From positions 1,090,064 through 1,122,063 of the forward strand of contig NZ_JHUX01000003.1 in the NCBI RefSeq assembly GCF_000619845.1: a DNA stretch of 32,000 bases, in the 5' to 3' direction. Position 1 is the first letter of the stretch. Each line of letters begins with the position of its first letter. Below are positions 6,140 to 27,380 of this stretch, piece by piece. Origin of the DNA: Alkanindiges illinoisensis DSM 15370 (GTDB lineage Bacteria; Pseudomonadota; Gammaproteobacteria; Pseudomonadales; Moraxellaceae). The notes under the pieces are model-generated. The model did not search any database and was not told the DNA's origin. It was given only the letters and a program-made list of their open reading frames with translations. Made by a program: the position numbers and the translations under genes.

Positions 6140-6298
6140 TTAGGAAGCTGAACCGCTGTGCTCGTCACTGTGTTTTAGTTCATCATGCGTGTATGTCGCG
6201 GTAAATCCTTCTACCAAATCAATTGCTGAAGCCAGTAACGTAATAAAAGTACGGGTAACCAGCTGTCCTGACTTTGGCTGGATAGTCACCTTAATCAT
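6140..6298 (-). CDS. small hypothetical protein (52 aa), not in the ORF track
   Basis: Hand-translated as MIKVTIQPKSGQLVTRTFITLLASAIDLVEGFTATYTHDELKHSDEHSGSAS. A GGAG sits 7 nt upstream of the ATG, and the hairpin at 6025-6070 follows it. Confidence 0.4.
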   Translation of the reverse strand: MIKVTIQPKSGQLVTRTFITLLASAIDLVEGFTATYTHDELKHSDEHSGSAS

Positions 6299-6611
6299 AA
6301 GATTTCTCCAATTTATTTTCAGGTTTAATTCACAATAACGACTTGGTACTGCATCATCTAGGCTAAAGACACCATCATGATGCGTGTTACAACAACTTTA
6401 ATATATAAAGTCAGCTTGTAATCATCTACGGGAAACTACCCTGCTTTTTGTGTAAAATCAGAGTAAATGTATAAGCAAACCAGCAGTTTATAAAAGCTAA
6501 CGCAGGCTTTGGTCATCTTGTGTTAATAAATCAGAAGCTGGTTACATAACTGATGAGCAGACTTTTTAAATTTTTTATTGTTAGTCTTGAATTAATGTCT
6601 GAAATTTTTTA

Positions 6612-6653
6612 ATAAAAAAAGGAATCTGCTACTAGCAAAGCTGGCAAATTCCT
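6612..6653 (-). terminator. rho-independent terminator downstream of the lipocalin gene
   Basis: 11-bp stem (aggaatctgcta / tggcaaattcct, one mismatch) followed on the minus strand by T7. It lies 20 nt after the stop at 6673. Confidence 0.6.
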
Positions 6654-6672
6654 GTTGTGTTGCGCATTCTAT

Positions 6673-7251
6673 TTACTGGGTGTGCCTAGTGCGAATTAGC
6701 TTGCTGGTGTCAAAACCCTGCTGTTTGGCTGCATCAACATAGTTCTGATAGGTTTGCTCATCAAGATGTGGTGTGCGAGACAAGATCCATAAATACTTGC
6801 GGTTGGGTGCGCCAACCAAGGCAGTCTGGTAATTGTCATCCAGCTTTAAAATCCAGTAATCACCTTTGGTAAAAGGAATCCAGCGCAAGCCTTGTGGCAA
6901 AAAGCTGACTTTAAGTTTGCTATTGGCCTTGTCTATCGGTGTGGCCTCACCCTGTGATGCCATGTTTTCTCCATTAGCCTTACGACACTGGTTGAGCACT
7001 GAAACCTTGCCATTGGCTTGCAAGCCGTAGGTTGCGGTGACATCACTGGCGCACTTGCGCTGGAAATACATGGGGAAACGCGCAACTTCATACCATGTGC
7101 CCAAATAGCGGTTTAAGTCCACCTGATTTACGGTTTGTGGCTTATTCGCTGGTGCTGCAATGGCAACCGAACCTAAGACCGCAAATCCCAGCAGGACCAT
7201 GGCGCTACGTTTGAGTATTTTGTGTGATGGCGCAACATGGGTAATGGTCAT
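6673..7251 (-). CDS. blc: bacterial lipocalin (Blc-like), secreted
   Basis: Lipocalin signature YLGTWYEVARF and a signal peptide with no lipobox Cys. Start set to the ATG at 7251, which has GAGGAG 7 nt upstream. Confidence 0.85.
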   Translation of the reverse strand: MTITHVAPSHKILKRSAMVLLGFAVLGSVAIAAPANKPQTVNQVDLNRYLGTWYEVARFPMYFQRKCASDVTATYGLQANGKVSVLNQCRKANGENMASQGEATPIDKANSKLKVSFLPQGLRWIPFTKGDYWILKLDDNYQTALVGAPNRKYLWILSRTPHLDEQTYQNYVDAAKQQGFDTSKLIRTRHTQ

Positions 7252-13734: not shown

Positions 13735-13810
13735 TCTCCAATAGCTCAGTCGGTAGAGCAACGGACTGTTAATCCGTGTGTCCCTGGTTCGAGCCCAGGT
13801 TGGAGAGCCA
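13735..13810 (+). tRNA. tRNA-Asn (GTT)
   Basis: The cloverleaf folds by hand: acceptor tctccaa/ttggaga, anticodon loop ctGTTaa, T-loop ttcgagc, encoded CCA. Confidence 0.95.
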
Positions 13811-13972: not shown

Positions 13973-14455
13973 ATGAGTAATTCAGAAAGAAATCTGGAAG
14001 GAATTAGAGGCTGGTTAGTATTAATATTTATAGGCTTAGTTATCACACCAATTCGTATTGGTCTGTTTCTTTTTCAAGAATATACAGCACTATTTAAACA
14101 TGGTAACTGGAATGTACTTACATCTCCATCAAGTGAATTCTACCATCATTTATGGGCACCATTATTAGTGTTTGAAAGCGTTGGCAATTTATTGCTACTT
14201 ATATTGTCTTTAACCGTATTATATTTCTTTTTACACAAATCAAAATATGTACCAAAACTTATAATTTTCTGGCTAACGTATGGCCTTATTTTTGTCATTA
14301 TAGATTTTTTCTTCGCCGAACAAATTCCACTAATAGCGGATCTTTCTCAAGATACCGAATCCACTAAAGAAGTTATAAGATCATTCATTGCTGCGCTTAT
14401 TTGGATACCTTACTTCCTTATATCAAAAAGGGTTAAGGCCACTTTTATTCATTAA
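13973..14455 (+). CDS. polytopic membrane protein, DUF2569 (YdgK)-like
   Basis: 160-aa ORF in visibly AT-rich DNA between the two tRNA-Asn copies. It has an N-terminal GIRGWLVLIFIGL segment and about 4 TM helices. The family assignment is from memory of the motif and has not been searched. Confidence 0.6.
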   Translation: MSNSERNLEGIRGWLVLIFIGLVITPIRIGLFLFQEYTALFKHGNWNVLTSPSSEFYHHLWAPLLVFESVGNLLLLILSLTVLYFFLHKSKYVPKLIIFWLTYGLIFVIIDFFFAEQIPLIADLSQDTESTKEVIRSFIAALIWIPYFLISKRVKATFIH

Positions 14456-14668: not shown

Positions 14669-14744
14669 TCTCCAATAGCTCAGTCGGTAGAGCAACGGAC
14701 TGTTAATCCGTGTGTCCCTGGTTCGAGCCCAGGTTGGAGAGCCA
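14669..14744 (+). tRNA. tRNA-Asn (GTT), second identical copy
   Basis: 76 nt identical to 13735..13810, at an offset of 934 bp. Confidence 0.95.
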
Positions 14745-14852: not shown

Positions 14853-15302
14853 ATGAGCATGTGGCTGATTATTGGTATTGTAATCATTGCATTACTGGGC
14901 ATTATTGCAGGGGAAAATAAAAAGCCCCGCCAGCAGCACACACCCATTCATGCCAAACCAATATTAACCCGTCGTGAACAGCAGTTTTTTGCCGTACTGC
15001 AACAAGCCATGCCCCGCGCTTATATTTTCCCGCAAGTCAGCTTTTCCGCCATTTTGACTACTAAGGGGTTTTATACGCGTAGTCAGTTTAACCGCAAGAT
15101 TGCTGACTTTGTGTTATGCGATCACAATCTTAATATTGTGGCGATTATTGAACTGGATGACAGTAGTCATAAAGGCCGCGAGCAACAGGATGCCGCGCGT
15201 GATGCCATGCTGAATGAAGCAGGCTATCCGGTATTTCGCTATGCACAAATTCCTGTGGCTGGGCAGCTCCAGAAAGACCTGCAAAAATACCTGAAGTGGT
15301 AA
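14853..15302 (+). CDS. membrane-anchored DUF2726 / PD-(D/E)xK nuclease-like protein (copy A)
   Basis: 149 aa from the ATG at 14853; the track start at 14712 lies inside the tRNA. An N-terminal TM helix is followed by a K/R-rich stretch and then ADFVL...IIELDDSSHKG. It is about 50% identical by eye to the prophage protein at 26278..26739. Confidence 0.8.
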   Translation: MSMWLIIGIVIIALLGIIAGENKKPRQQHTPIHAKPILTRREQQFFAVLQQAMPRAYIFPQVSFSAILTTKGFYTRSQFNRKIADFVLCDHNLNIVAIIELDDSSHKGREQQDAARDAMLNEAGYPVFRYAQIPVAGQLQKDLQKYLKW

Positions 15303-15346: not shown

Positions 15347-15715
15347 TTAGTTGTGTTTTCTATCAAAGGCCTTATGCTGGTTTGCGCTGGCATCGCGCAC
15401 ATTACTGGCACAAGTACTGGCGCTGACCTCCACTGGCTTGGCTCTTGCATCATAACATTTACAGCCTGTGGGCGTTTTCATGCAGCCTGCAATATACTGC
15501 ATTTGTGAGCTGGAATTTAAATGATGCAGTTGTGACTTGATCTGTTCATTTTGAATCTGGGTTTCACTCATGCCATCGCTATGCGGCGTCGGAATTGAAT
15601 CTGAAGAAATCTGGCTCGGCTCGGTTTTAAAGAAAGACTGCTTTTTAAGGACATTAAACACAACAAGTGCAATGACCAGAAAAATAGCCAGCTTAATCAT
15701 TTTTTGTAAGGCCAT
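15347..15715 (-). CDS. orphan Zot/pI C-terminal-domain (pXI-like) protein
   Basis: TM helix (KLAIFLVIALVVF) plus YIAGCMKTPTGCKCYDARAKPVEVSASTC, which aligns without gaps to the C-terminus of the prophage Zot (YLSGCIQLKTKCSCYTQQGSKLDVSIADC), all 4 Cys included. The start is uncertain (ATG at 15715 or 15700, TTG at 15736) and there is no clear SD. Confidence 0.6.
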   Translation of the reverse strand: MALQKMIKLAIFLVIALVVFNVLKKQSFFKTEPSQISSDSIPTPHSDGMSETQIQNEQIKSQLHHLNSSSQMQYIAGCMKTPTGCKCYDARAKPVEVSASTCASNVRDASANQHKAFDRKHN

Positions 15716-15932
15716 AATTGTCTTTATAATTAGCAAAATTATGTGAGTAGCGGCAAATTTCTATTATTGTATTAATATCAGCATGCACACTGTGAAAACT
15801 GATTTTAATAAATCTATGCCTTAAAAGACAAGCTGTAACAGAGTTGCTTATAATTTAAGCAGCATCATTGATGTTTACCGCTGCATACTCCAGCTTATTC
15901 AATTCAACAATAATATACAGCTGGAGTATGTC

Positions 15933-18305: not shown

Positions 18306-18764
18306 TTGTTTAATGGCTTTGCCAGAGAAATAAATGAGTCAATTAATTTTTTTAATTATAGGGTTGGATATTGGTTAGGGAAAAATTATAAATCAACCAG
18401 ACAAAATAAAAAGCCGGTGCCATCACGGCTTAGGCAATTGACAGCCATAGAACGGCAAAAAGCTAAAGTTCTGTATACAACTGATGCAGATCGCATTAAG
18501 GAGCTCAATTTACTTTCACCCACTGAAGGAAAGTTTTTACGCATACTTCAGCATGAATTCATCAGTGCTGACATTGTAGTCAAGCAAAAGCGTTTCTTTG
18601 TGGTAGATAAAGATCAATTTCCACTGGCTATCTTTGAATATCGTGATGGGTTGCAAACTTTAAGGGCAACAGATGTAGATGATGGTTTACCTGTATTTAT
18701 CTATAAGAATTTGCCACCAAGCAGCTCTATTAAAGAAGATGCAGAATTTATACTGGCTCGATAA
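18306..18764 (+). CDS. hypothetical protein with degenerate DUF2726-like segments
   Basis: AT-rich region with a TTG start and no internal Met. LSPTEGKFLRILQHEF, FFVVDKDQFPLAIFEYRDG and GLPVFIYKN mirror the LT..E..F..L, DFV..ELD and AGYPV.RY blocks of the two DUF2726 proteins, but the acidic and Lys residues are not conserved. Confidence 0.45.
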   Translation: MFNGFAREINESINFFNYRVGYWLGKNYKSTRQNKKPVPSRLRQLTAIERQKAKVLYTTDADRIKELNLLSPTEGKFLRILQHEFISADIVVKQKRFFVVDKDQFPLAIFEYRDGLQTLRATDVDDGLPVFIYKNLPPSSSIKEDAEFILAR

Positions 18765-19171: not shown

Positions 19172-19301
19172 GATATTTTTCTAGTAATCTTGTATGGGTA
19201 CAAGAAAGTAAGATTAAGCCGTTAATTTTGCACAGAAAACTAGCAATTTGAATGATCTAGAAAAAGAGGTTGTCAAAGCTAAGCCCAAAATTAGTTTTAA
19301 G

Positions 19302-19386
19302 TGAAATTGCTGGATTAAATCCGTTTGATACGCGCACAGAGGTACAGACGGAATTAGACAAGGATAATTCTTCTTATTGGAATAAA
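19302..19386 (+). pseudogene. remnant of the 3' end of a phage HTH-regulator gene (older, related phage)
   Basis: Encodes [29 protein letters not shown], colinear with the tail of the intact prophage HTH gene (26995-27079). Of the 11 differing codons, 6 are synonymous and 5 change the residue. Confidence 0.6.
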
Positions 19387-19431
19387 TGGCGCGCCCGGCG
19401 GGATTCGAACCCACGACCCCTGCCTTCGGAG
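19366..19431. repeat. attL: 66-bp perfect direct repeat (21 bp of flank plus the 3' 45 nt of tRNA-Arg)
   Basis: Identical to 27059-27124 at an offset of 7,693 bp. It contains only the 3' part of the tRNA (CCA end to anticodon loop). Confidence 0.85.
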
Positions 19432-19465
19432 CGCGTCAGTTTTAGTATTTCAGTTACAAAAATAT

Positions 19466-20347
19466 TTAAAAAGTTGGCAGAGATTTTAGAGCGTCGCGCA
19501 AATTATCAATTTGCAAGTGAGCATAGCGCTCCGTTGTTGTTATACACGTATGGCCTAGCAGATCGCGCACCGTATAAAGCGGGATTCCCGATTGAACGAG
19601 CCACGATGCAAAAGTGTGTCGTAAATCGTGAATACGCAAGTTATCAATCTTTGCCATCTTACAGGCTAATCTAAATCCTTTCTTTAAACTCAGTATATGA
19701 GTGCCTGTCTGTTCATTATAAAAAACCCAAGTATTATTCGCCCTGGCTAACTTCATTTCATGCAGCACTTGCATGGCCGTTTCATTCAATGCAATAAAAC
19801 GCCGCCGTTTTGACTTGGTATTTTCCCTATTCAGAATTAAATAGCGATTATTAAAATCCACCCTATCCCAAGAAAGCCGGAGCAGCTCACCAGATCGGCA
19901 GCCCGTATTTAAAGCCAATTTGATAAAGCAGTTTAAAAAGTAATTATCTTTTGAAGCATAGATTAGCCTTGCAGCTTCAGCATTAGATAGAAAGCGGATA
20001 CGTGGCTCAGATTCAGATAATGAAAAATTGGCCAATGGGTTTCTATGGGATAATTCATGGTCAGTAAAATAATAATTAATTGCAGCACGCAGAGACCGAA
20101 ATTCACGGTTAATTGTCGCGTCAGTCACTCCAGCAGCACGCCTAAAGTGAATGTAGTCACGCAGGCTTTGCCGTGTGATTGCAGTTATTTCAATGTCACC
20201 ATAAAAAAGCTCAAAGCGTGCATAGGCATATTTGTCACGATCTTTTGAAGTATGTTCAGAATAATGCAGATAATAAGCTGTCACATTATTAAGGGTAATC
20301 ATAGCTAAAAGTCCTGATACATAAGGACTTTTAAAAGTGGAATTCAT
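19466..20347 (-). CDS. int: tyrosine recombinase / phage integrase
   Basis: C-terminal catalytic region NTGCRSGELLRL...HDLRHTFASWLVQSG...LLGHTCITTTERYAHL (R, H-x-x-R, Y). It lies directly next to attL. Confidence 0.9.
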   Translation of the reverse strand: MNSTFKSPYVSGLLAMITLNNVTAYYLHYSEHTSKDRDKYAYARFELFYGDIEITAITRQSLRDYIHFRRAAGVTDATINREFRSLRAAINYYFTDHELSHRNPLANFSLSESEPRIRFLSNAEAARLIYASKDNYFLNCFIKLALNTGCRSGELLRLSWDRVDFNNRYLILNRENTKSKRRRFIALNETAMQVLHEMKLARANNTWVFYNEQTGTHILSLKKGFRLACKMAKIDNLRIHDLRHTFASWLVQSGIPLYTVRDLLGHTCITTTERYAHLQIDNLRDALKSLPTF

Positions 20348-20366
20348 GGCATGTTTAGTCTGTTTT

Positions 20367-20512
20367 GAAACGCGGTGCGTTTCGCTTCGCTTGTAACTAT
20401 GAAGCTGATGCGCACAAGTCGCATCAGCTTCTGTAATTAGCTTGTTTTTGGGTTCTTTGGGCGATCAAGTTACTTTCAGACTAGACGGTGCAGTTGCCCG
20501 CTATTCTGAAAG
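20367..20512 (-). promoter_or_regulatory. cluster of three hairpins in the phage non-coding region (candidate packaging signal / origin / terminator)
   Basis: gaaacgc-ggt-gcgtttc (20367-20383); a perfect 12-bp stem gaagctgatgcg/cgcatcagcttc (20401-20431); ctttcaga/tctgaaag (20473-20512). Confidence 0.4.
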
Positions 20513-20523
20513 CCTTGACGCTG

Positions 20524-20649
20524 CTAATCCCTACTATTTTCTTTGACACCTTTAATAATTCTACGAATAGGGTGTTTAATACCGTCCCATATAAAACCAA
20601 ATAAGCATAGACCTATAAGAAACATCAGTGCTTGATAATAACTAGACAT
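20524..20649 (-). CDS. small hydrophobic phage protein (41 aa), not in the ORF track
   Basis: Its ATG at 20649 overlaps the zot stop (ATGTCTAG). The product is MSSYYQALMFLIGLCLFGFIWDGIKHPIRRIIKGVKENSRD: one TM helix plus a basic tail. Confidence 0.5.
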   Translation of the reverse strand: MSSYYQALMFLIGLCLFGFIWDGIKHPIRRIIKGVKENSRD

Positions 20650-21934
20650 TAGGTGTTACCTGTGCTGGTGACTGCACTGGAGCAGCAGGCTGTGACTGTG
20701 CAAGGAACGGGTTAAACGGCATTCCGTCATTGATTACTTTTTTGCAGTCCGCTATAGACACGTCCAGCTTAGATCCTTGTTGCGTGTAACAACTGCATTT
20801 TGTCTTGAGCTGGATGCAACCGGACAGATAAGGCCGGTTAACTCCACCAGCAGAATACTGGTTATCAAAAGGCTTGTTTGGGTCATAATTCACTTCCACA
20901 GTAGGCGTGGAAGTTTGATTTTGCAGTGTGGAAGTCTGTCGCGCTTCCAGATCTGCACGTTGCTCAGGGGTCAGCGGGTCATGCACTTGTGCTGCCTGCT
21001 GTGCTTGTACTGTCTGGCTAGTTTTTGCTGGTTGAGGTTTGCCCCCAGCGACCTCAGTTAAAAAGTTATCTGTCAGGAACAGGGTTTTTAGAGCGTAGGT
21101 AAACGCTAGAACTACACCAATACAGATAAAAATAAACTTGGGTGGGATACGCATTTTATGCGTGTGTACCGTAGCAGACTTATAATATTTATATAAATCC
21201 TTTGGATAGCTAAAGCGAAATGAGCGTTCAGCAATGGCTTTTTTTGTTGGCTCATTAGGCCCAAGAACACAGTAAGCCCAGAGATATACAGTAGCCGATG
21301 GCATCCCCCAGCCACGGTGCAGGTGGAAGTGATTACCCACTACTGAACGGAAGTGAGAATGCACCAGAACCGGAAACTGGGTGATCCCATAAATATCAAA
21401 ACCGCGGTGACGGTGAATCTGTAAGGCTTCTACAATGTCATTGGTTTTGCGTTCTTCCTTGTAGGTTTCACGCTGCTGGATTTCATCATAGAACACGCGT
21501 GAGCCGTCAGGACAAGTACGCCAGTCATCAGGACTAGGCAAAACATTAGGGACTTTCAGGCCGTTGATGTCAGCGTATATGGTGCGGACATCCTTTAAAA
21601 ACTTAAGTTTTAAAGCAGGGTTATAGTCCTTAATACGGGTAATAATTGAGTTGTAAGCCATTGTTTTCTGGTAGTAGAGCTCATGGCGTAATTCAAGGGA
21701 AAGTATAGAAAAATGATCATATTCATCTGGGTATAACTCTATTTGCTCTTTTAAATTCCAGCCATACTGGAATTCATCTTCAAGCTTGTTTTCCCTAATG
21801 ATTTTATCGTTATGGGCAAAAATAGCAGGGTTCAGCTTAATGTTCTTGGCGTTCTCTTTTTCAAACTGGATGATTAAAGAAACCGCGTAAAGGGTTTTTC
21901 CTGAGCCGGGCGTTCCGGTTATCAAATGCAGCAT
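20642..21934 (-). CDS. zot: Zot / pI-like filamentous-phage assembly ATPase
   Basis: N-terminal Walker A GTPGSGKT, a central TM helix (FIFICIGVVLAF), and a Cys-containing periplasmic C-terminal domain. Its position after the pVI-like gene matches Ff and CTXphi. Confidence 0.92.
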   Translation of the reverse strand: MLHLITGTPGSGKTLYAVSLIIQFEKENAKNIKLNPAIFAHNDKIIRENKLEDEFQYGWNLKEQIELYPDEYDHFSILSLELRHELYYQKTMAYNSIITRIKDYNPALKLKFLKDVRTIYADINGLKVPNVLPSPDDWRTCPDGSRVFYDEIQQRETYKEERKTNDIVEALQIHRHRGFDIYGITQFPVLVHSHFRSVVGNHFHLHRGWGMPSATVYLWAYCVLGPNEPTKKAIAERSFRFSYPKDLYKYYKSATVHTHKMRIPPKFIFICIGVVLAFTYALKTLFLTDNFLTEVAGGKPQPAKTSQTVQAQQAAQVHDPLTPEQRADLEARQTSTLQNQTSTPTVEVNYDPNKPFDNQYSAGGVNRPYLSGCIQLKTKCSCYTQQGSKLDVSIADCKKVINDGMPFNPFLAQSQPAAPVQSPAQVTPNV

Positions 21935-22011
21935 GGGTTACTCCGAAGCTACCCTGCGGGCGGGTCACCGTGCGCTCCGTGCAGTTGCGCGGTGCGCCGT
22001 GCAATCCGTCC
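21935..22011 (-). other. GC-rich 77-bp spacer with three GCACGG repeats
   Basis: On the minus strand it reads ggacggattGCACGGcgcaccgcgcaactGCACGGagcGCACGGtgacccgcccgcagggtagcttcggagtaaccc, immediately before the zot ATG. Its composition is unlike the flanking phage DNA. Confidence 0.5.
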
Positions 22012-22299
22012 TCAGGTAGCTTTTCGCAATGTTAGCTTTGATGCGTTTAACGCCATTCGGGTCAAATACGCAGATAAAATAAGCGACATATAGAGATCAA
22101 GGCCAAGCAAGTGTGCAAAGGCCAATACGTCACTTGGTACACCACCTAGCATCGACTTCATTTTGTCAACGGCAGCCGTGAAGGTGGTCATGAATATGGC
22201 TGATGAGGTAAGCATGACACCCGCACCAGTTAGGACATTTTTTAAGAATCCCTTTTGACTGGATTCAACAACAGCAGTTACTTTTGACCAGAAACCCAT
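22012..22299 (-). CDS. pVI / Ace-like minor coat protein
   Basis: 95-aa hydrophobic protein. Its ATG at 22299 overlaps the upstream stop (TAATG). It lies between the pIII-like gene and zot. The track start at 22395 is upstream and overlaps the pIII-like gene. Confidence 0.6.
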   Translation of the reverse strand: MGFWSKVTAVVESSQKGFLKNVLTGAGVMLTSSAIFMTTFTAAVDKMKSMLGGVPSDVLAFAHLLGLDLYMSLILSAYLTRMALNASKLTLRKAT

Positions 22300-23714
22300 T
22301 AACTTTCTTCCTCTGTACGTCCAGCTACGATCATAGAAGCCTGATAAGCACCAATGAGTAAAATTGCTGGTTTTGCATAAGCAAAAGCCTGACACCAGCC
22401 GGAAAGATCAAACTCAAAGGTCTGGGTTTGACCTATAAAATTAAAGCTGAAGGTTTTTGGCTGGGGACATGTTCCGCCAAAATCCAACTGGATGGCTTGA
22501 GGTGTTTCTGTCGTAGGAATATCAATATCAGTATCACTATCATCACGCTCAGGAACTTCTTCCTTGATTGCATCAGCAAGCTCGCGTGTGGCCGTTGCTG
22601 TTTTCGTTGTTTCAGCAAGCTGTTTTTCTGCATCAGTATGGGCTTGAGTAGTTCCAGCAGTTACAGCCTTTTTGGTTTCCTCTGTCTGTGTTGCAGTGGT
22701 TTGAGTCGCTGTTTTCACTGATTCTGTGTCAGTTGCTATACGGGTAGAGTTAGTAGCAACTTTTCCTGAATTGGTATTACTAATATTCATTGCGTCACAA
22801 ATGAAAGCAGCCCATGAGCAAAAGCCGGGCAATGTGAATTTTTCTATAGGCGGTGCATCTGGATCAGCAGTATTAGGCTTTGTTTCTTTGGTGATATCGT
22901 TGTCACCTTCTTTAGGCTCTACACCAGCATTTGCATCTAGCTGTTGAGGTACAGAGGGATATGCAAGAGGTTTACCTTGTTCAGCGTCAGCTAGATCAGC
23001 CGCAACTGTTTCTTTTACAAAGTCATTTGCAGCAGCGTCACCAGCAGCGGCATTTTTTGCTATTTCAGCGCCAACAACATCGTACGGTAAGTATTTTTCT
23101 TCAGGTTTAATGTCGGGGTCATAATTTGGGTTTACGACACGGTTAGCTTGGTCGTATCCCCAAGCACTACGGCATTCAACGGTTTGACCATTATCTGTTG
23201 CAACCATTTCGGTGATAGGAGGATGTCCTTCAACAGCAGCAACAGCAGCATTACACGCTTCCCCAAATGTAGAATAAGTCTTTGTTGTGCCAGCAATAGA
23301 AATCTGCCATAAATATTGAGAATTATTAACAGGTGTTTCCCAATATTTAACACGATTATTTGCAGGATCAAGTACCCAAGAAACACCATCGAGAAGTAAA
23401 TCAATTGCAGTCGTTACAGCTAGTACAGCACCGAAACGACCTATGCCACGCGCCAGATCAGCAGGTGCTGGAGTAACTTTTGCAAATGAATTAACCGTAC
23501 GAGAAGCACCATTAATGATTGCTTCTTTGGTTGCATTGATTGTTGCTACACCAGCCTCAGCAGCTATAGAACCTACAGACCAGCCACCCAAACCAGAAGC
23601 AGCATTTGCAAATACATAAGCTGGAGCAAACATCATGTAAACACAGATGATTAGATTAATTATCTTCGTGTGATAATCAGGAATGCTAGAACGGTTACAA
23701 TTAAAGGTATCCAA
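22299..23714 (-). CDS. pIII-like adsorption / minor coat protein
   Basis: 471 aa with a signal peptide (...MMFAPAYVFANA), a Thr/Ala/Gln-rich linker, and a C-terminal membrane anchor (AILLIGAYQASMIVAGRTEEES). It lies after the coat gene. The start (TTG at 23714) is uncertain. Confidence 0.65.
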   Translation of the reverse strand: MDTFNCNRSSIPDYHTKIINLIICVYMMFAPAYVFANAASGLGGWSVGSIAAEAGVATINATKEAIINGASRTVNSFAKVTPAPADLARGIGRFGAVLAVTTAIDLLLDGVSWVLDPANNRVKYWETPVNNSQYLWQISIAGTTKTYSTFGEACNAAVAAVEGHPPITEMVATDNGQTVECRSAWGYDQANRVVNPNYDPDIKPEEKYLPYDVVGAEIAKNAAAGDAAANDFVKETVAADLADAEQGKPLAYPSVPQQLDANAGVEPKEGDNDITKETKPNTADPDAPPIEKFTLPGFCSWAAFICDAMNISNTNSGKVATNSTRIATDTESVKTATQTTATQTEETKKAVTAGTTQAHTDAEKQLAETTKTATATRELADAIKEEVPERDDSDTDIDIPTTETPQAIQLDFGGTCPQPKTFSFNFIGQTQTFEFDLSGWCQAFAYAKPAILLIGAYQASMIVAGRTEEES

Positions 23715-23740
23715 TTTATCCAGCTCGCTTCGTCAGTCAT
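23660..23740 (-). CDS. possible 26-aa coat-like peptide (pVII/pIX-style), not in the ORF track
   Basis: MTDEASWINWIPLIVTVLAFLIITRR has an acidic N-terminus, a hydrophobic core and a basic C-terminus. It overlaps the pIII-like 5' end in another frame. The SD is weak. Confidence 0.3.
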   Translation of the reverse strand: MTDEASWINWIPLIVTVLAFLIITRR

Positions 23741-23754
23741 TTAGTTAATCCCAA

Positions 23755-23783
23755 TAGAAGAAAGCCCCGAAGGGCTTTCGTTT
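23755..23783 (-). terminator. hairpin terminator immediately after the major coat gene
   Basis: gaaagccc-cgaa-gggctttc, 5 nt after the coat stop, followed on the minus strand by a T-rich tract. Ff phages have a terminator after gene VIII. Confidence 0.6.
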
Positions 23784-24032
23784 TTACTTGGCACCCTTTT
23801 TGAACCATGACCATGCGAGGTACATGCCCAGTAAACCAACCAGAACAATAATGACTCCCTTAACAGCAGTTTTAGTGCCGTCAAGCTCACCAGTTGCCCC
23901 AGAGAAGTCCAGTTCAGCAGCAGCAAAAGAATTAGCTGCTACAAGCGCAGTTGAAGCCCCTACAGCACCTACGAATGCTGCATCCTTAAGACGTTTAACC
24001 AGTGGTTGGGTTTGTGGAGTTACATCTTTCAT
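23784..24032 (-). CDS. major coat protein (pVIII-like)
   Basis: The leader ends ...AANSFA|AAELDF. The mature peptide of about 45 aa has an acidic N-terminus, a hydrophobic core (VIIVLVGLLGMYLAW) and a basic C-terminus (FKKGAK). AAGGA is upstream. Confidence 0.85.
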   Translation of the reverse strand: MKDVTPQTQPLVKRLKDAAFVGAVGASTALVAANSFAAAELDFSGATGELDGTKTAVKGVIIVLVGLLGMYLAWSWFKKGAK

Positions 24033-24054
24033 TTTTTACATCCTTAAGTTGTGT

Positions 24055-24252
24055 TCAGGTGTTTTTATCCATGAACTGTTTAAAAAGCTGGTAGCAGTAA
24101 GCCATTATTAAAATCGTGCAGATTTCAACAGTAAGCTCACGTGCTTGAGCTTTCGTGATTGCGACCTGGTCAAGTACAGTGACTTGCTCAGACCATGAAA
24201 CACACGTCTGTGGCGTTGTGTCAGATAGCTGGTCACAGACGTAGTGCGTCAT
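24055..24252 (-). CDS. small phage protein (65 aa)
   Basis: Tightly packed: it starts 3 nt after the previous stop. It has one hydrophobic segment (ICTILIMAYCYQLF). Function unknown. Confidence 0.5.
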   Translation of the reverse strand: MTHYVCDQLSDTTPQTCVSWSEQVTVLDQVAITKAQARELTVEICTILIMAYCYQLFKQFMDKNT

Positions 24253-24255
24253 TCT

Positions 24256-24396
24256 TTAAAATCCGGTGCAGGTCATGTAATGGGCAGTAATCAGGCTTTT
24301 AGACATGACTTGACCGCAGCAAATACATTTAACTTTTGGTACGAGTGATATGCTCATTGGCTTAAATCCCAGTCCTTTTACATAAACCTGAATCAT
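24256..24396 (-). CDS. small Cys-rich phage protein (46 aa), not in the ORF track
   Basis: Its ATG is 2 nt after the stop of the ssDNA-binding-like gene. The product is MIQVYVKGLGFKPMSISLVPKVKCICCGQVMSKSLITAHYMTCTGF, with a C-x-CC...H...C pattern. Confidence 0.5.
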   Translation of the reverse strand: MIQVYVKGLGFKPMSISLVPKVKCICCGQVMSKSLITAHYMTCTGF

Positions 24397-24398
24397 GG

Positions 24399-24704
24399 TT
24401 AAGCCTTAGCAGCTTGTGGCGCTAGAACAGGCTTTAGGTCAATCAAAATGGTTTTTTGGCTTTTGCCATTGGTGACCATTTCAAACGTGGCCACCGCTTC
24501 GAACGGAAACTTGAGTGTTGCCACTTTGTTGAAGTTGTCAGACAGCCCCCATGGGTATTCAGAGCCAGCGAAGCCCACAGCATCGCCTTTGCTGGTGTCC
24601 ATGCCTGTTTGCACGTAAACCTTTGTGCTGTCGTATGGCTTTCCTTCCATTTCGCCTTTGCTACGCTTCGCACCAGTTACTACTACGTTAGATTGAAATT
24701 GCAT
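24399..24704 (-). CDS. probable ssDNA-binding protein (pV/RstB position)
   Basis: 101-aa ORF directly after Rep, with GAGGT as SD. The call is by position only; I recognise no diagnostic motif. Confidence 0.5.
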   Translation of the reverse strand: MQFQSNVVVTGAKRSKGEMEGKPYDSTKVYVQTGMDTSKGDAVGFAGSEYPWGLSDNFNKVATLKFPFEAVATFEMVTNGKSQKTILIDLKPVLAPQAAKA

Positions 24705-24714
24705 GTTTTTTACC

Positions 24715-25995
24715 TCAAGAATAAACAGCGTTAAATTGGGAGCGCTGAACAGCCTGACTCAAGCGTGTATAGCCATAAGCCTGTTCAAACTGTTTGTTAC
24801 GTTCCATTGAAATTGCAAGATGATCAATAATTTGCAGACGCTTAGGTACTGCGTCAGGGTCATTAGCAGTCACAAACTGCATAATTTCTGAATCGGAATA
24901 AACCTTGCGGAAAAGGGCAAAGTATTTGCCGAATTGATGTTTGATAATTTCCTTAGCCCGCTTCTGGGTGATTTCAGCTGTTTTTTTAACAGTGGCTATT
25001 TTTTCAGGCGTGGCGTACTGGTGAAAATCCGAAAAACAAGGATAAGCACCAATAAAATATTGAGAAGGACTAAGCAAAATATCAAATGGTATAAAGCGGT
25101 CATGGCCTTTAAATTCAACCTCTGCACGTGTCCAAGGATCATCCTTAGCACCCTCTTTTTTACCTTTTTCATAAATCCGGCAATATTTTCCAGATTCACG
25201 AGTGCCAATGGTTAGCGTCCGGCCTTTGCCTGTAATGCGTTTCCAGTTGCCCAAGTGTCCAATGTTAGGCATGGTGCCACCGCACCAGAAGCCGCCTAAG
25301 CCGTCTTGCATGTTTGCCCAGTCAACATTTAAGTGTTTGCCCTGCAAATCATCATGTGCAAGGTCTACACGGGTCAGCTTGGTACGCTGGGCATATCCGG
25401 TCAGGTATTTATAAAGGCGTTCATGCCATCCTTTAGCTGCTAAAGCACAGCCTTTGCCGTTAAGCTGGACTGCAATGCGTTTAGAGCTATGACCCATTAA
25501 GACTATGCCTAGGTTGTCTTGCAGCTCCCAAGAGTACTTATAGAAGTGCATACCCTTGTCACGTTTTTTTGCGATGCCAAAACCGAAGATTTCAAACAGG
25601 TCTTGGTCTAAATCGTCGGCAATGTCGTCGTAGGCGTCAGCATCATCTAGGCCTAGTGCTAAATATTTAGGGCTAAAGGTTTCAACACCTAGCGCAAATG
25701 TTACCCAGTCCAGTTGAGCAACTTCGCCAGTACAAGGCACGCTATGGATGATTGGCAGGTCTGTACCATCTTCAGTTTTGACCATGCGGACGTTGTCCAG
25801 CTTGCGTGGATACTTCCAGTTGCCTAGGTCTGCTGTTTTCCCGAAAATTTCCGGCTGGTTGCCTTCCACTATCGCAGGGATTAAGGCCTCTTGCGTCCCC
25901 TGTGGTGATACCGTTACCCCCATATTATAAAAGGGGGTCTTTTCGACCTTTACCGTGTGTTTTAACTGGGTTTTGATTAATTTTTGATCAGACAT
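24715..25995 (-). CDS. rolling-circle replication initiator (Rep_trans / RstA-like)
   Basis: LTRVDLAHDD and GKYCRIYEKGKKEG...WTRAEVEF blocks are typical of the Rep_trans family used by CTXphi-type phages. The ATG at 25995 overlaps the upstream ORF stop (ATGTCTGA). Confidence 0.85.
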   Translation of the reverse strand: MSDQKLIKTQLKHTVKVEKTPFYNMGVTVSPQGTQEALIPAIVEGNQPEIFGKTADLGNWKYPRKLDNVRMVKTEDGTDLPIIHSVPCTGEVAQLDWVTFALGVETFSPKYLALGLDDADAYDDIADDLDQDLFEIFGFGIAKKRDKGMHFYKYSWELQDNLGIVLMGHSSKRIAVQLNGKGCALAAKGWHERLYKYLTGYAQRTKLTRVDLAHDDLQGKHLNVDWANMQDGLGGFWCGGTMPNIGHLGNWKRITGKGRTLTIGTRESGKYCRIYEKGKKEGAKDDPWTRAEVEFKGHDRFIPFDILLSPSQYFIGAYPCFSDFHQYATPEKIATVKKTAEITQKRAKEIIKHQFGKYFALFRKVYSDSEIMQFVTANDPDAVPKRLQIIDHLAISMERNKQFEQAYGYTRLSQAVQRSQFNAVYS

Positions 25996-26254
25996 GATCA
26001 TCCCCCAATTGTTCCAGAATTTCACTCAGGGAAGCATTTTCACTTTCAAAAATGTCAGCAAGTGCAGCGATGCGAGCTGGTGAGTAGCCCCAAGCCGCAC
26101 AAACTGTTTCAAGCTGGCGCAGGCAATGTTCAGTATTTGGTGTGCATGAGCCGCCTACAATGATTTCTTCGCCATAATTCGCTACTATCTGTGCGACATG
26201 ATCAAATGCAGCTTGAGCAAACTCATGCTGATCTTTATAGACAAACGTTTGCAT
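25988..26254 (-). CDS. hypothetical acidic phage protein (88-91 aa)
   Basis: Its stop overlaps the Rep start. I found no SD before either candidate start (ATG at 26254, GTG at 26263). Confidence 0.45.
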   Translation of the reverse strand: MQTFVYKDQHEFAQAAFDHVAQIVANYGEEIIVGGSCTPNTEHCLRQLETVCAAWGYSPARIAALADIFESENASLSEILEQLGDDHV

Positions 26255-26277
26255 GGCGTTCACCAGAGAGAGAAAAA

Positions 26278-26739
26278 ATGGAAATCTTGATAATCATTGC
26301 TGTTGTAGTTATTGCAGCCTTAGCTTTTTTAGGAGCAGCTAATAAAAGCAAATCTACTAAAGGTAAAAACCAAACACCCATTAAGGCTAAGCGCGTTTTA
26401 ACCATGAATGAGCAGCCAACATTCAACAGATTACGAGAAGCACTACCTGACCATATAGTTTTAGCCCAAGTTTCATTTGGTGCATTATTAAGTACAACCG
26501 GACAAGCAACACGTAATCGCTTTAATCGAAAAATTGCAGATTTTGTTGTACTGGATAAATCTTTTAACGTGGTTGCAGTTGTCGAACTGGACGACAAGAG
26601 CCACAAAGGAAAAGAACAGCAAGATGCAGAACGGGATGCAATGCTTAAGGAAGCTGGATATCGTGTCATTCGATATCCGAGAACTCCTGATCTAGATAAA
26701 GTCAAAGCTGACTTTGCACCACCCATAAACACACCTTGA
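26278..26739 (+). CDS. membrane-anchored DUF2726 / PD-(D/E)xK nuclease-like protein (copy B, prophage cargo)
   Basis: 153 aa with an N-terminal TM helix (EILIIIAVVVIAALAFLG), a Lys-rich stretch, and ADFVVLD...VVELDDKSHKG...GYRVIRY. It is on the strand opposite to the phage structural operon. Confidence 0.8.
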   Translation: MEILIIIAVVVIAALAFLGAANKSKSTKGKNQTPIKAKRVLTMNEQPTFNRLREALPDHIVLAQVSFGALLSTTGQATRNRFNRKIADFVVLDKSFNVVAVVELDDKSHKGKEQQDAERDAMLKEAGYRVIRYPRTPDLDKVKADFAPPINTP

Positions 26740-26790
26740 TATTTCGCTAAATCGGCTTAACATAATTGTGAAGTCGGATTAACTAAATCT

Positions 26791-26830
26791 AACCAAATTT
26801 GTGAAGAAAGGTTACTTCACAAATTTGGTT
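26791..26830. promoter_or_regulatory. 16-bp perfect inverted repeat, candidate operator upstream of the HTH gene
   Basis: aaccaaatttgtgaag-N8-cttcacaaatttggtt ends 18 nt before the HTH ATG. A third TTGTGAAG copy is at 26766-26773. Confidence 0.55.
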
Positions 26831-26848
26831 ATCGTCAAGGTGTGCGAA

Positions 26849-27145
26849 ATGATCAAAGAACTAATAGAAAAAGCAAAATTTAGCTTGGGAAGCTATGAAA
26901 AATTAGCAGAAGCGACAGGCGTAAGACCGTCTGTAGTATCGGAATGGAAAGCAGGAAAAAGAAAGCCTGATGCTTTTAAAATTTGTTATATGGCTGAAAT
27001 TGCTGGATTAAATCCGTTAGATACACTTGCAGAAGTACAAGCAGAAATTGATAAAGACAATTCTTCTTATTGGAATAAATGGCGCGCCCGGCGGGATTCG
27101 AACCCACGACCCCTGCCTTCGGAGGGCAGTACTCTATCCAGCTGA
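26849..27145 (+). CDS. Cro/CI-type HTH regulator whose 3' end crosses attR into the antisense of tRNA-Arg
   Basis: HTH segment [26 protein letters not shown]. The frame has no stop before the tRNA and ends at 27143-27145. The track start at 26801 lies inside the inverted repeat, so the ATG at 26849 is preferred. Confidence 0.75.
27059..27124. repeat. attR: 66-bp perfect direct repeat
   Basis: Identical to 19366-19431. Here it is part of the complete tRNA-Arg. Confidence 0.85.
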
Positions 27146-27156
27146 GCTACGGGCGC
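27080..27156 (-). tRNA. tRNA-Arg (CCG)
   Basis: The reverse complement folds by hand: acceptor gcgcccg/cgggcgc, anticodon loop ctCCGaa, T-loop ttcgaat, encoded CCA. Confidence 0.95.
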
Positions 27157-27197: not shown

Positions 27198-27380
27198 GCA
27201 TTGCTTTTTTAACTGCTAGTTTTCTGTGCAATTTCTTATCAGTAATCTGCCAAACTATAACGCCTGCTCAATAAGTTGCAACGCAGCGTTCATAAAATAC
27301 AACCGGATAAGACTTGGCTTTTTTGACAATATTCCCGACAATAGGTGCCCTGTGCTTAACCAGTCATTTGAGAGAATTCC

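Follow-up and report, generated by a model that had tools for sequence, protein, structure and literature searches.

The subject of this work was a small gene (26278-26739, forward strand) within a 32,000-nt stretch of Alkanindiges illinoisensis DSM 15370 DNA (contig NZ_JHUX01000003.1), called the window below, whose numbering is used throughout except where another record is named. The gene lies in an integrated filamentous phage (inovirus), antisense to its int, zot, coat and rep genes, and encodes a 153-amino-acid (aa) member of DUF2726 and of the Vsr/DUF559 clade, with a transmembrane (TM) helix at its N-terminus. Its recurrence as cargo of inoviruses is strongly supported, and it is under strong purifying selection both in 7-kb phage genomes and in chromosomes. 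An earlier note, made from the sequence letters, had seen in it a membrane-held nuclease that might serve exclusion or defence; the protein is a good candidate for a one-gene barrier against incoming DNA, and we give slightly less than an even chance to its being a membrane-sequestered nuclease that acts on DNA as it enters the cell.

Domains, fold and active site

The open reading frame (ORF) is genuine, and its product has a 100% identical NCBI entry from A. illinoisensis. It matched both PF10881 (DUF2726; E 4e-16, 59.3 bits against a gathering cut-off of 24.7) and PF04480 (DUF559; E 5.5e-9, 36.3 bits, cut-off 20.6) in Pfam, with a further, weak match to MTES_1575, a restriction-endonuclease family. 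Alignment revealed, in order, a hydrophobic helix at the N-terminus, a linker rich in Lys and Arg, and a strongly conserved domain. Across the 40 homologues (48-87% identity) used for residue conservation, E45, Q64, R79, K85, D88, E103, D105, D106, H109, D116 and R119 were invariant (40/40), and of these E45, D88, E103, D105, H109 and D116 are residues of catalytic type. An "EDxHD" active site (E...D...acid...H...D) has been described for Vsr and I-Bth0305I (PMC3239194); the invariant E...D...E-x-D...H...D set of the DUF2726 protein corresponds to this signature, the mapping being by sequence pattern and not by superposition.

The AlphaFold2 (AF2) model (predicted local distance difference test score, pLDDT, 88.4) showed a helix at residues 2-25, a low-confidence Lys-rich linker (~22-40) and an alpha/beta core resembling restriction endonucleases. 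Eight structural matches at E<=1e-3 were found in BFVD, a viral structure library, the best being DUF559 proteins, restriction enzymes and a "group I intron-associated VSR homing endonuclease" (E 1e-4 to 9e-4), together with phage DUF2726 proteins. Foldseek matches in the PDB were all of the restriction-endonuclease fold (DrdV, VRR-NUC, EcoT38I, BsaXI, MunI) and all weak, with a best E of 0.05, so that BFVD told more than the PDB did. The nuclease fold and intact active-site signature that the earlier note had proposed are thus borne out by the Pfam scores, the invariant residues and the AF2 and BFVD results. The fold is not new, since DUF2726 was assigned to the Vsr/DUF559 clade of PD-(D/E)xK enzymes, with its function unknown, in 2012 (PMC3424549). 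No PADLOC model matched the product, and NCBIfam gave no informative match.

Membrane anchor and topology

The protein begins without positive charge (Met-Glu), continues with a hydrophobic stretch of about 20 residues and then carries seven Lys/Arg within 17 residues, which is the pattern expected of an N-out/C-in signal anchor. A cleavable signal peptide was rejected, given the lack of a positive n-region, the length of the hydrophobic stretch and the seven Lys/Arg that follow it. A hydrophobic N-terminal 19-mer was found upstream of the domain in 150 of 157 relatives (71/77 viral and 79/80 genome copies), and among the copies with this helix the charge was more positive after it than before it in 68 of 71 viral and 74 of 79 genome cases. 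Together with the AF2 helix, the charge pattern across relatives agrees with the prediction, already made in the earlier note, of one N-terminal TM helix followed by a Lys-rich stretch, and the catalytic domain is likely to be cytoplasmic.

Recurrence in filamentous phages

The IMG/VR database was scanned with an ELDD[SKA]SH-type pattern and by tblastn, and the loci collected are those of the subfamily closest to the phage-borne query. A relative was encoded by 76 contigs, most of them 5-14 kb in length, and zot and/or rep were recovered in 73 of the 76 by an iterated profile search. Since inoviruses account for far less than 1% of IMG/VR, this is a very large enrichment. The DUF2726 gene was antisense to zot in 70 of 72 IMG/VR loci, and the hosts of the carrier inoviruses, Moraxellaceae, Burkholderiales and Vibrio, span three bacterial orders. 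Three arrangements were seen: divergent from the Rep_trans gene in Acinetobacter and Burkholderiales phages, convergent and downstream of zot/pIV in Vaf1-like Vibrio phages, and co-directional downstream of pIV in six V. cyclitrophicus phages. Metagenomic loci of the Acidovorax type (L258-L260) have the divergent Rep_trans/DUF2726 arrangement, but there a serine recombinase (Resolvase) replaces the tyrosine integrase; a urease operon adjoins these loci.

A survey of the 80 best genome loci gave a different picture. Either zot or rep lay within 10 kb of the gene at 15 of them, which is far above any plausible background, and neither was present at the other 65. Of the earlier claim that the family is filamentous-phage cargo, the recurrence therefore stood, and a specificity for inoviruses did not.

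Not every related phage carries the gene. A single-protein Rep query recovered no IMG/VR relatives, and an alignment query was used to collect Rep_trans inoviruses; five of the 80 closest had the DUF2726 gene, a single phrog_23897 gene was seen, and the accessory slot of these 80 held regulators and small ORFs besides. In the Vaf1/V. cyclitrophicus lineage the gene is present in each of the seven GenBank phages, and no DUF2726 relative was detected in fs2/VFJ at E<=1e-5. In a V. cyclitrophicus phage the gene adjoins PD-T7-4. Two phage records, L253 (PQ189324.1, 8314-9788) and L254 (PQ189328.1, 8132-10124), show DUF2726 as the constant left border of a variable segment, with a regulator following that segment; the contents of the V. 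cyclitrophicus segment differ, being PD-T7-4 in one phage and an RNA-methyltransferase-like gene in a second.

A supplementary table of one study of Vibrio filamentous prophages (PMC11630473) has ten entries for DUF2726, listed there as a Pfam hit without annotation, and one of them is beside PD-T7-4. Literature searches recovered no main-text account of DUF2726 function or of DUF2726 as inovirus cargo, and those on DUF559 with anti-phage activity and on inovirus nuclease exclusion recovered no functional study; mentions in transposon screens of Avibacterium (biofilm) and P. putida (fluoride) were uninformative for DUF2726. Neither the membrane tether nor the cross-order spread of the family is described in the studies of Vibrio filamentous prophages (PMC11630473; PMC12715192).

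Selection on phage and chromosomal copies

Between the prophage gene and its counterpart at 6250-6714 of the metagenomic phage L004, the nonsynonymous and synonymous divergences (dN and dS) were 0.068 and 0.87, giving a dN/dS of about 0.08. The two DUF2726 products share 87% amino acid identity at that dS, against 69% for Rep, where dS was saturated, and a dN of 0.73 for Zot. The cargo gene is thus more conserved between the two phages than Rep, integrase or Zot, a pattern that suggests a recent exchange of the regulatory-side module between diverged phage backbones. A chromosomal paralogue in the window (14853-15302) had a dN/dS of about 0.06, compared with about 0.22 for its neighbour at 15347-15736. 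The DUF2726 gene also survives at sites of decayed prophages.

Position within the prophage

A 133-nt direct repeat, which holds the 3' part of tRNA-Arg, marks the two ends of the prophage (19302-19434 and 26995-27127; the copies are 89% identical). Its features are as follows.

19302..19434: attL-side repeat (repeat comparison), a diverged remnant of the 3' end of the helix-turn-helix (HTH) gene with the 3' part of tRNA-Arg
19466..26263, minus strand: inovirus backbone (Pfam/phrog matches)
19466-20347, minus strand: tyrosine integrase
20642-21934, minus strand: Zot/pI
Within 19466..26263, minus strand: coat, adsorption and single-stranded DNA (ssDNA)-binding genes
24715-26025, minus strand: Rep_trans initiator
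25988-26263, minus strand: 91-aa phrog_20873 gene, divergent from the DUF2726 gene
26278..26739, plus strand: prophage-borne, membrane-tethered DUF2726/DUF559 (Vsr-like) nuclease-fold protein (Pfam, alignment, AF2, BFVD)
26790..26831: perfect 17-bp inverted repeat (TAACCAAATTTGTGAAG...CTTCACAAATTTGGTTA) between the DUF2726 and HTH genes
26801..27145, plus strand: HTH_3 regulator, its 3' end overlapping tRNA-Arg and the att core
26995-27127: attR-side repeat
27080..27156, minus strand: tRNA-Arg(CCG), the integration target

The gene was correctly placed by the earlier note: it is opposite to the structural operon (int/zot/coat/rep, 19466-26025, minus strand) and directly upstream of the HTH regulator. 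It starts 15 bp from the start of the phrog_20873 gene, which runs in the opposite direction. A copy 87% identical to it occupies the same slot in three circularly permuted metagenomic contigs of ~7 kb, each a whole phage genome, and is the reason for regarding it as genuine phage cargo; the gene order of the window's inovirus backbone is matched in L004-L006. The DUF2726 gene is best read as accessory cargo on the regulatory side of the prophage and not part of the virion or replication machinery.

Judged from the sequence, the inverted repeat at 26790-26831 is probably the operator of the HTH regulator, and the true start of the HTH gene is probably the ATG at 26849 instead of the GTG at 26801. 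Just upstream of the repeat there is a promoter-like site (26736-26763). A 20-bp inverted repeat (19226-19245 and 27214-27233) brackets the whole attL-prophage-attR segment, and in a related strain without the prophage (L170, 5880-6340) the tRNA-Arg points the other way although its flanking genes are the same, which suggests that the segment has been inverted between strains.

Chromosomal and plasmid contexts

The second DUF2726 gene of the window is chromosomal, and its surroundings are these.

14853..15302, plus strand: chromosomal DUF2726 paralogue, 149 aa, of the same architecture (Pfam, BLASTP)
15347..15736, minus strand: 129-aa ORF with a TM helix and a Cys-containing domain, resembling the Zot/pI C-terminus (E 1e-6 to the window Zot)

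The paralogue product scored 75.1 bits for DUF2726 (cut-off 24.7) and 38.5 bits for DUF559 (cut-off 20.6) in Pfam and was 49% identical to the prophage-borne protein (E 4e-51), close to the 50% or so that had been estimated by eye. It lies downstream of a tRNA-Asn (14669-14744) and upstream of the convergent 129-aa ORF, which was also recovered by the iterated zot profile and is probably the remainder of an old inovirus; the earlier note had rightly put phage-derived DNA and tRNA-Asn beside it. The order aspartate aminotransferase, tRNA-Asn, DUF2726 and Zot-C-like gene is kept in other Alkanindiges/Moraxellaceae genomes, and the Zot-C-like neighbour is conserved in L126, L136, L137 and L170-172. 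The pair looks like an old, domesticated prophage remnant, retained as a two-gene unit, and not like random debris. As a free-standing protein of 122-129 aa that resembles phage pXI, the Zot-C-like product is encoded at 15347-15736 (minus strand) in the window, at 10498-10887 in L126, at 10440-10868 in L136 and at 2009-2377 in L170. Nearby, two tRNA-Asn(GTT) genes (13735-13810 and 14669-14744) flank a DUF2569 membrane-protein gene (13973-14455) that is missing at the syntenic site in L126, L136, L137 and L170, and the DUF2569 segment looks like an insertion that duplicated tRNA-Asn.

Elsewhere the chromosomal copies fall into recurring gene neighbourhoods, with superoxide dismutase (sodB), NIF3, DAP dehydrogenase and UbiA in the A. 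lwoffii group, ABC-F ATPase, RNase T and an amidohydrolase in the A. calcoaceticus group, and a third group in Variovorax. Other relatives were found by a P4-type integrase island, by Fic and RelB/ParE genes, and on a conjugative Pseudomonas megaplasmid. No adjacent partner gene was conserved across the prophage, chromosomal and plasmid contexts, in which the neighbours differ. Counted as clusters at 50% identity, the family numbers about 190 at E<=1e-30 and about 2,000 at E<=1e-10, and in a crude neighbour-joining tree the phage and chromosomal copies were interleaved, with about 22 parsimony switches.

Records labelled "Acinetobacter phage MD-2021a" and several PLSDB "plasmids" proved to be chromosomal DNA and were left out of the mobile-element evidence. 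Among them, L003 (CAKLQH020000037.1), L262 (CP033552.1) and H66-H68 hold the Acinetobacter chromosomal genes cysK, creBCD, dinP, sodB and glnA; some mislabelled phage or plasmid records are 3.6-4.1 Mb long, and they inflate the counts of phage and plasmid matches.

The gene at 18306-18764 and the phrog_23897 family

The earlier note had counted the DUF2726 family three times in the window, the third relative lying in a decayed phage to the left of attL.

18306..18764, plus strand: frameshifted phrog_23897-family gene (TM helix, basic linker, beta-rich domain; E 6e-43)

Degenerate it is, and in the equivalent slot, but its product showed no BLASTP or Pfam similarity to DUF2726 and it belongs to phrog_23897, so that DUF2726 proper occurs twice. 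Its frame is broken relative to the L170/L171 orthologues by a 7-bp deletion (GGCAATA; window 18335-18370) within the TM-coding segment; related strains have intact orthologues of 145 aa at this site.

The phrog_23897 family (90 clusters, mostly Acinetobacter) has the same succession of TM helix, basic linker and globular domain, and its gene holds the same slot, divergent from Rep, in other inoviruses of ~7 kb. A comparison of phrog_23897 with DUF2726 by hhalign gave a probability of 89.6% (E 1.9e-6) over 55 columns only, in which the counterpart of D88 is an invariant Arg and H109 has none; phrog_23897 has a conserved motif of its own, R..D.D...EYRDG. A structure search with its AF2 model (pLDDT 85) yielded no significant match. 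On the evidence of the one hhalign result, phrog_23897 is possibly, and at best, a remote homologue of DUF2726.

Proposed function and alternative explanations

As a membrane-sequestered nuclease, the DUF2726 product would be a small single-pass protein of the inner membrane whose C-terminal Vsr/DUF559-type ("EDxHD") domain is held in the cytoplasm on a short basic tether. It would cut DNA as this crosses the inner membrane, its targets being the ssDNA of superinfecting inoviruses, the DNA of other phages and possibly DNA that arrives by conjugation or transformation. The anchor would hold the nuclease away from the nucleoid, so that no immunity protein would be needed, and hosts would repeatedly keep the gene after the phage has decayed, or carry it as a core gene. 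As a purely speculative refinement, incoming ssDNA would be naked, and the outgoing ssDNA of the resident phage would be coated by its own ssDNA-binding protein. A precedent exists in SNIPE (PD-lambda-1), a membrane-bound nuclease that cleaves phage DNA during genome injection and is kept off the chromosome by its anchor (Nature 2026, PMC13190303).

The membrane-nuclease reading is favoured because of the invariant Vsr-type site, the stand-alone gene, the purifying selection, the slot on the regulator side, the studies of Vibrio accessory hot spots and the SNIPE precedent, and an exclusion or defence function is plausible from architecture, position and analogy. A more far-reaching version is less probable and is put forward tentatively: the ~150-aa combination of an anchor and a Vsr-like nuclease would be a complete, self-safe immunity factor, spread by inoviruses as an exclusion gene and repeatedly domesticated (core in Acinetobacter and Variovorax), with phrog_23897 alternating in the slot.

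Several results weigh against this function. The conservation of ELDD..H among the fetched loci is partly by construction, as the motif was the search pattern, and the PDB matches were weak (Foldseek E>=0.05), the best profile sequence match being the DUF559 protein 3HRL at E 0.07. PADLOC found nothing, and a nuclease or defence role for any member of the family is an inference. The 80 closest Rep_trans inoviruses had no recognised defence gene in their accessory slot, so that this lineage gives no support for a defence hot spot. SNIPE needs its DUF4041 domain to find injection sites, and the DUF2726 protein is without such a module. Finally, most of the 65 genome loci without inovirus genes have conserved housekeeping neighbourhoods around them, as opposed to defence islands, which fits a housekeeping role just as well.

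Of the other explanations, two are unlikely but survive best. In the first, the protein would be an anti-transformation ("anti-curing") nuclease that destroys ssDNA imported by competence and so prevents deletion of the prophage by homologous recombination, phage defence being secondary or absent. The hosts of carrier inoviruses include Acinetobacter/Alkanindiges and Vibrio, which are naturally transformable, and the inner membrane, the predicted site of the protein, is where ssDNA comes in. Many carriers, however, are Burkholderiales (Variovorax, Acidovorax, Janthinobacterium), in which competence is not established, and the core chromosomal copy in competent Acinetobacter must coexist with efficient transformation. 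Since SNIPE does not block plasmid transformation (PMC13190303), such a broader substrate range would be a new property.

The second, to which we give a similarly low likelihood, is that the protein is a host housekeeping enzyme of membrane-associated DNA repair or processing, the phage copies being passengers without selective value. The 65 of 80 genome loci with neither zot nor rep within 10 kb, mostly in housekeeping synteny groups, favour it, the purifying selection on the chromosomal paralogue equals that on neighbouring metabolic genes, and repair nickases are known within the Vsr family. Useless genes are, however, rarely kept in genomes of 6-9 kb, and the phage copy, at a dN/dS of 0.08, has diverged less between two phages than Rep or Zot. 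That 73 of the 76 viral carriers are inoviruses, from three bacterial orders and with three arrangements, speaks against passengers, as does the interleaving of phage and chromosomal copies in the tree.

It is improbable that the protein is a toxin-like effector of abortive infection or prophage addiction, which would attack the host chromosome when triggered, for example by release from the membrane or by loss of the prophage. Stand-alone core copies in chromosomes argue against a toxin that requires an antidote, and no partner gene is conserved, the neighbours differing in every synteny group. This must be set against the fact that toxin-antitoxin and abortive-infection genes are the commonest cargo of the variable loci of Vibrio inoviruses, that one relative adjoins Fic and RelB/ParE genes, and that some other proteins join a DUF2726 domain to an AbiJ N-terminal domain (PMC3710099).

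That the phage itself uses the protein to handle its DNA, be it in replication, in integration or excision, or in the handover of ssDNA to the membrane assembly machine, is very improbable: the protein would sit where inovirus ssDNA leaves through the membrane, and the whole Vaf1/V. cyclitrophicus lineage in GenBank has the gene, but only 5 of the 80 closest Rep_trans relatives carry it, fs2/VFJ are without it, its transcription mostly opposes that of the replication and assembly operon, and copies are under purifying selection where no functional phage is nearby. Equally hard to credit is a domain that is catalytically dead and binds DNA, with no role beyond fastening DNA or a regulator to the membrane, for although some Vsr-like and RAP domains (FASTKD4 is listed) are binding modules and the PDB matches are weak, the catalytic signature is fully invariant in 40 sequences down to 48% identity.

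Comparison with known systems

In Vibrio filamentous prophages, the border locus beside the regulator is a hot spot for defence-related accessory genes, and relics keep their cargo (PMC11630473; PMC12715192). The DUF2726 gene shares the features of this accessory hot spot (pHVR), being near the border and by the regulator, variable among relatives, kept in degraded prophages and, once, a neighbour of PD-T7-4.

The exclusion genes rexAB of phage lambda, like others, adjoin the prophage repressor gene. The DUF2726 gene is likewise on the repressor side of its prophage and divergent from the replication and structural operon, and so is plausibly expressed in the lysogen; it differs in that the HTH gene here has its own promoter-like site and palindrome, and the mechanism would be nucleolytic, as opposed to membrane depolarisation.

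With the Vsr/DUF559/"EDxHD" enzymes (E. coli Vsr, I-Bth0305I of PDB 3R3P and the N. gonorrhoeae protein 3HRL) the DUF2726 protein shares the fold family and the conserved acidic/His set. Those enzymes, however, are soluble and have additional DNA-recognition parts (the N-terminal part and Zn site of Vsr, or NUMOD/HTH domains), whereas the DUF2726 subfamily has a membrane helix and a basic tether and no recognisable specificity domain.

If the membrane-nuclease reading is true, no smaller membrane-bound nuclease barrier would be known, and the SNIPE principle would have been invented twice, independently. Filamentous phages, otherwise known for shutting out rivals by receptor blocking, would have their first assigned exclusion function based on a nuclease. 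Because the gene is core in Acinetobacter, clinical species included, and common in Vibrio inoviruses, it could affect phage therapy, plasmid uptake and natural transformation in these genera. The gene is tiny and the comparative signal strong, which makes the hypothesis cheap to test.

SNIPE, active against siphoviruses (PMC13190303), is the best model for how the DUF2726 protein could work. Each has an N-terminal TM anchor and a cytoplasmic nuclease domain (predicted in the present case), and each is a single gene without an immunity partner. SNIPE, however, is ~500 aa long and joins a DUF4041 targeting domain to a GIY-YIG nuclease, whereas the DUF2726 protein is ~150 aa, of the Vsr/DUF559 type and without a targeting domain. 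Neither DUF4041 nor GIY-YIG was matched in the 26278-26739 product by Pfam, and it is therefore regarded as an analogue of SNIPE and not as a member of that system.

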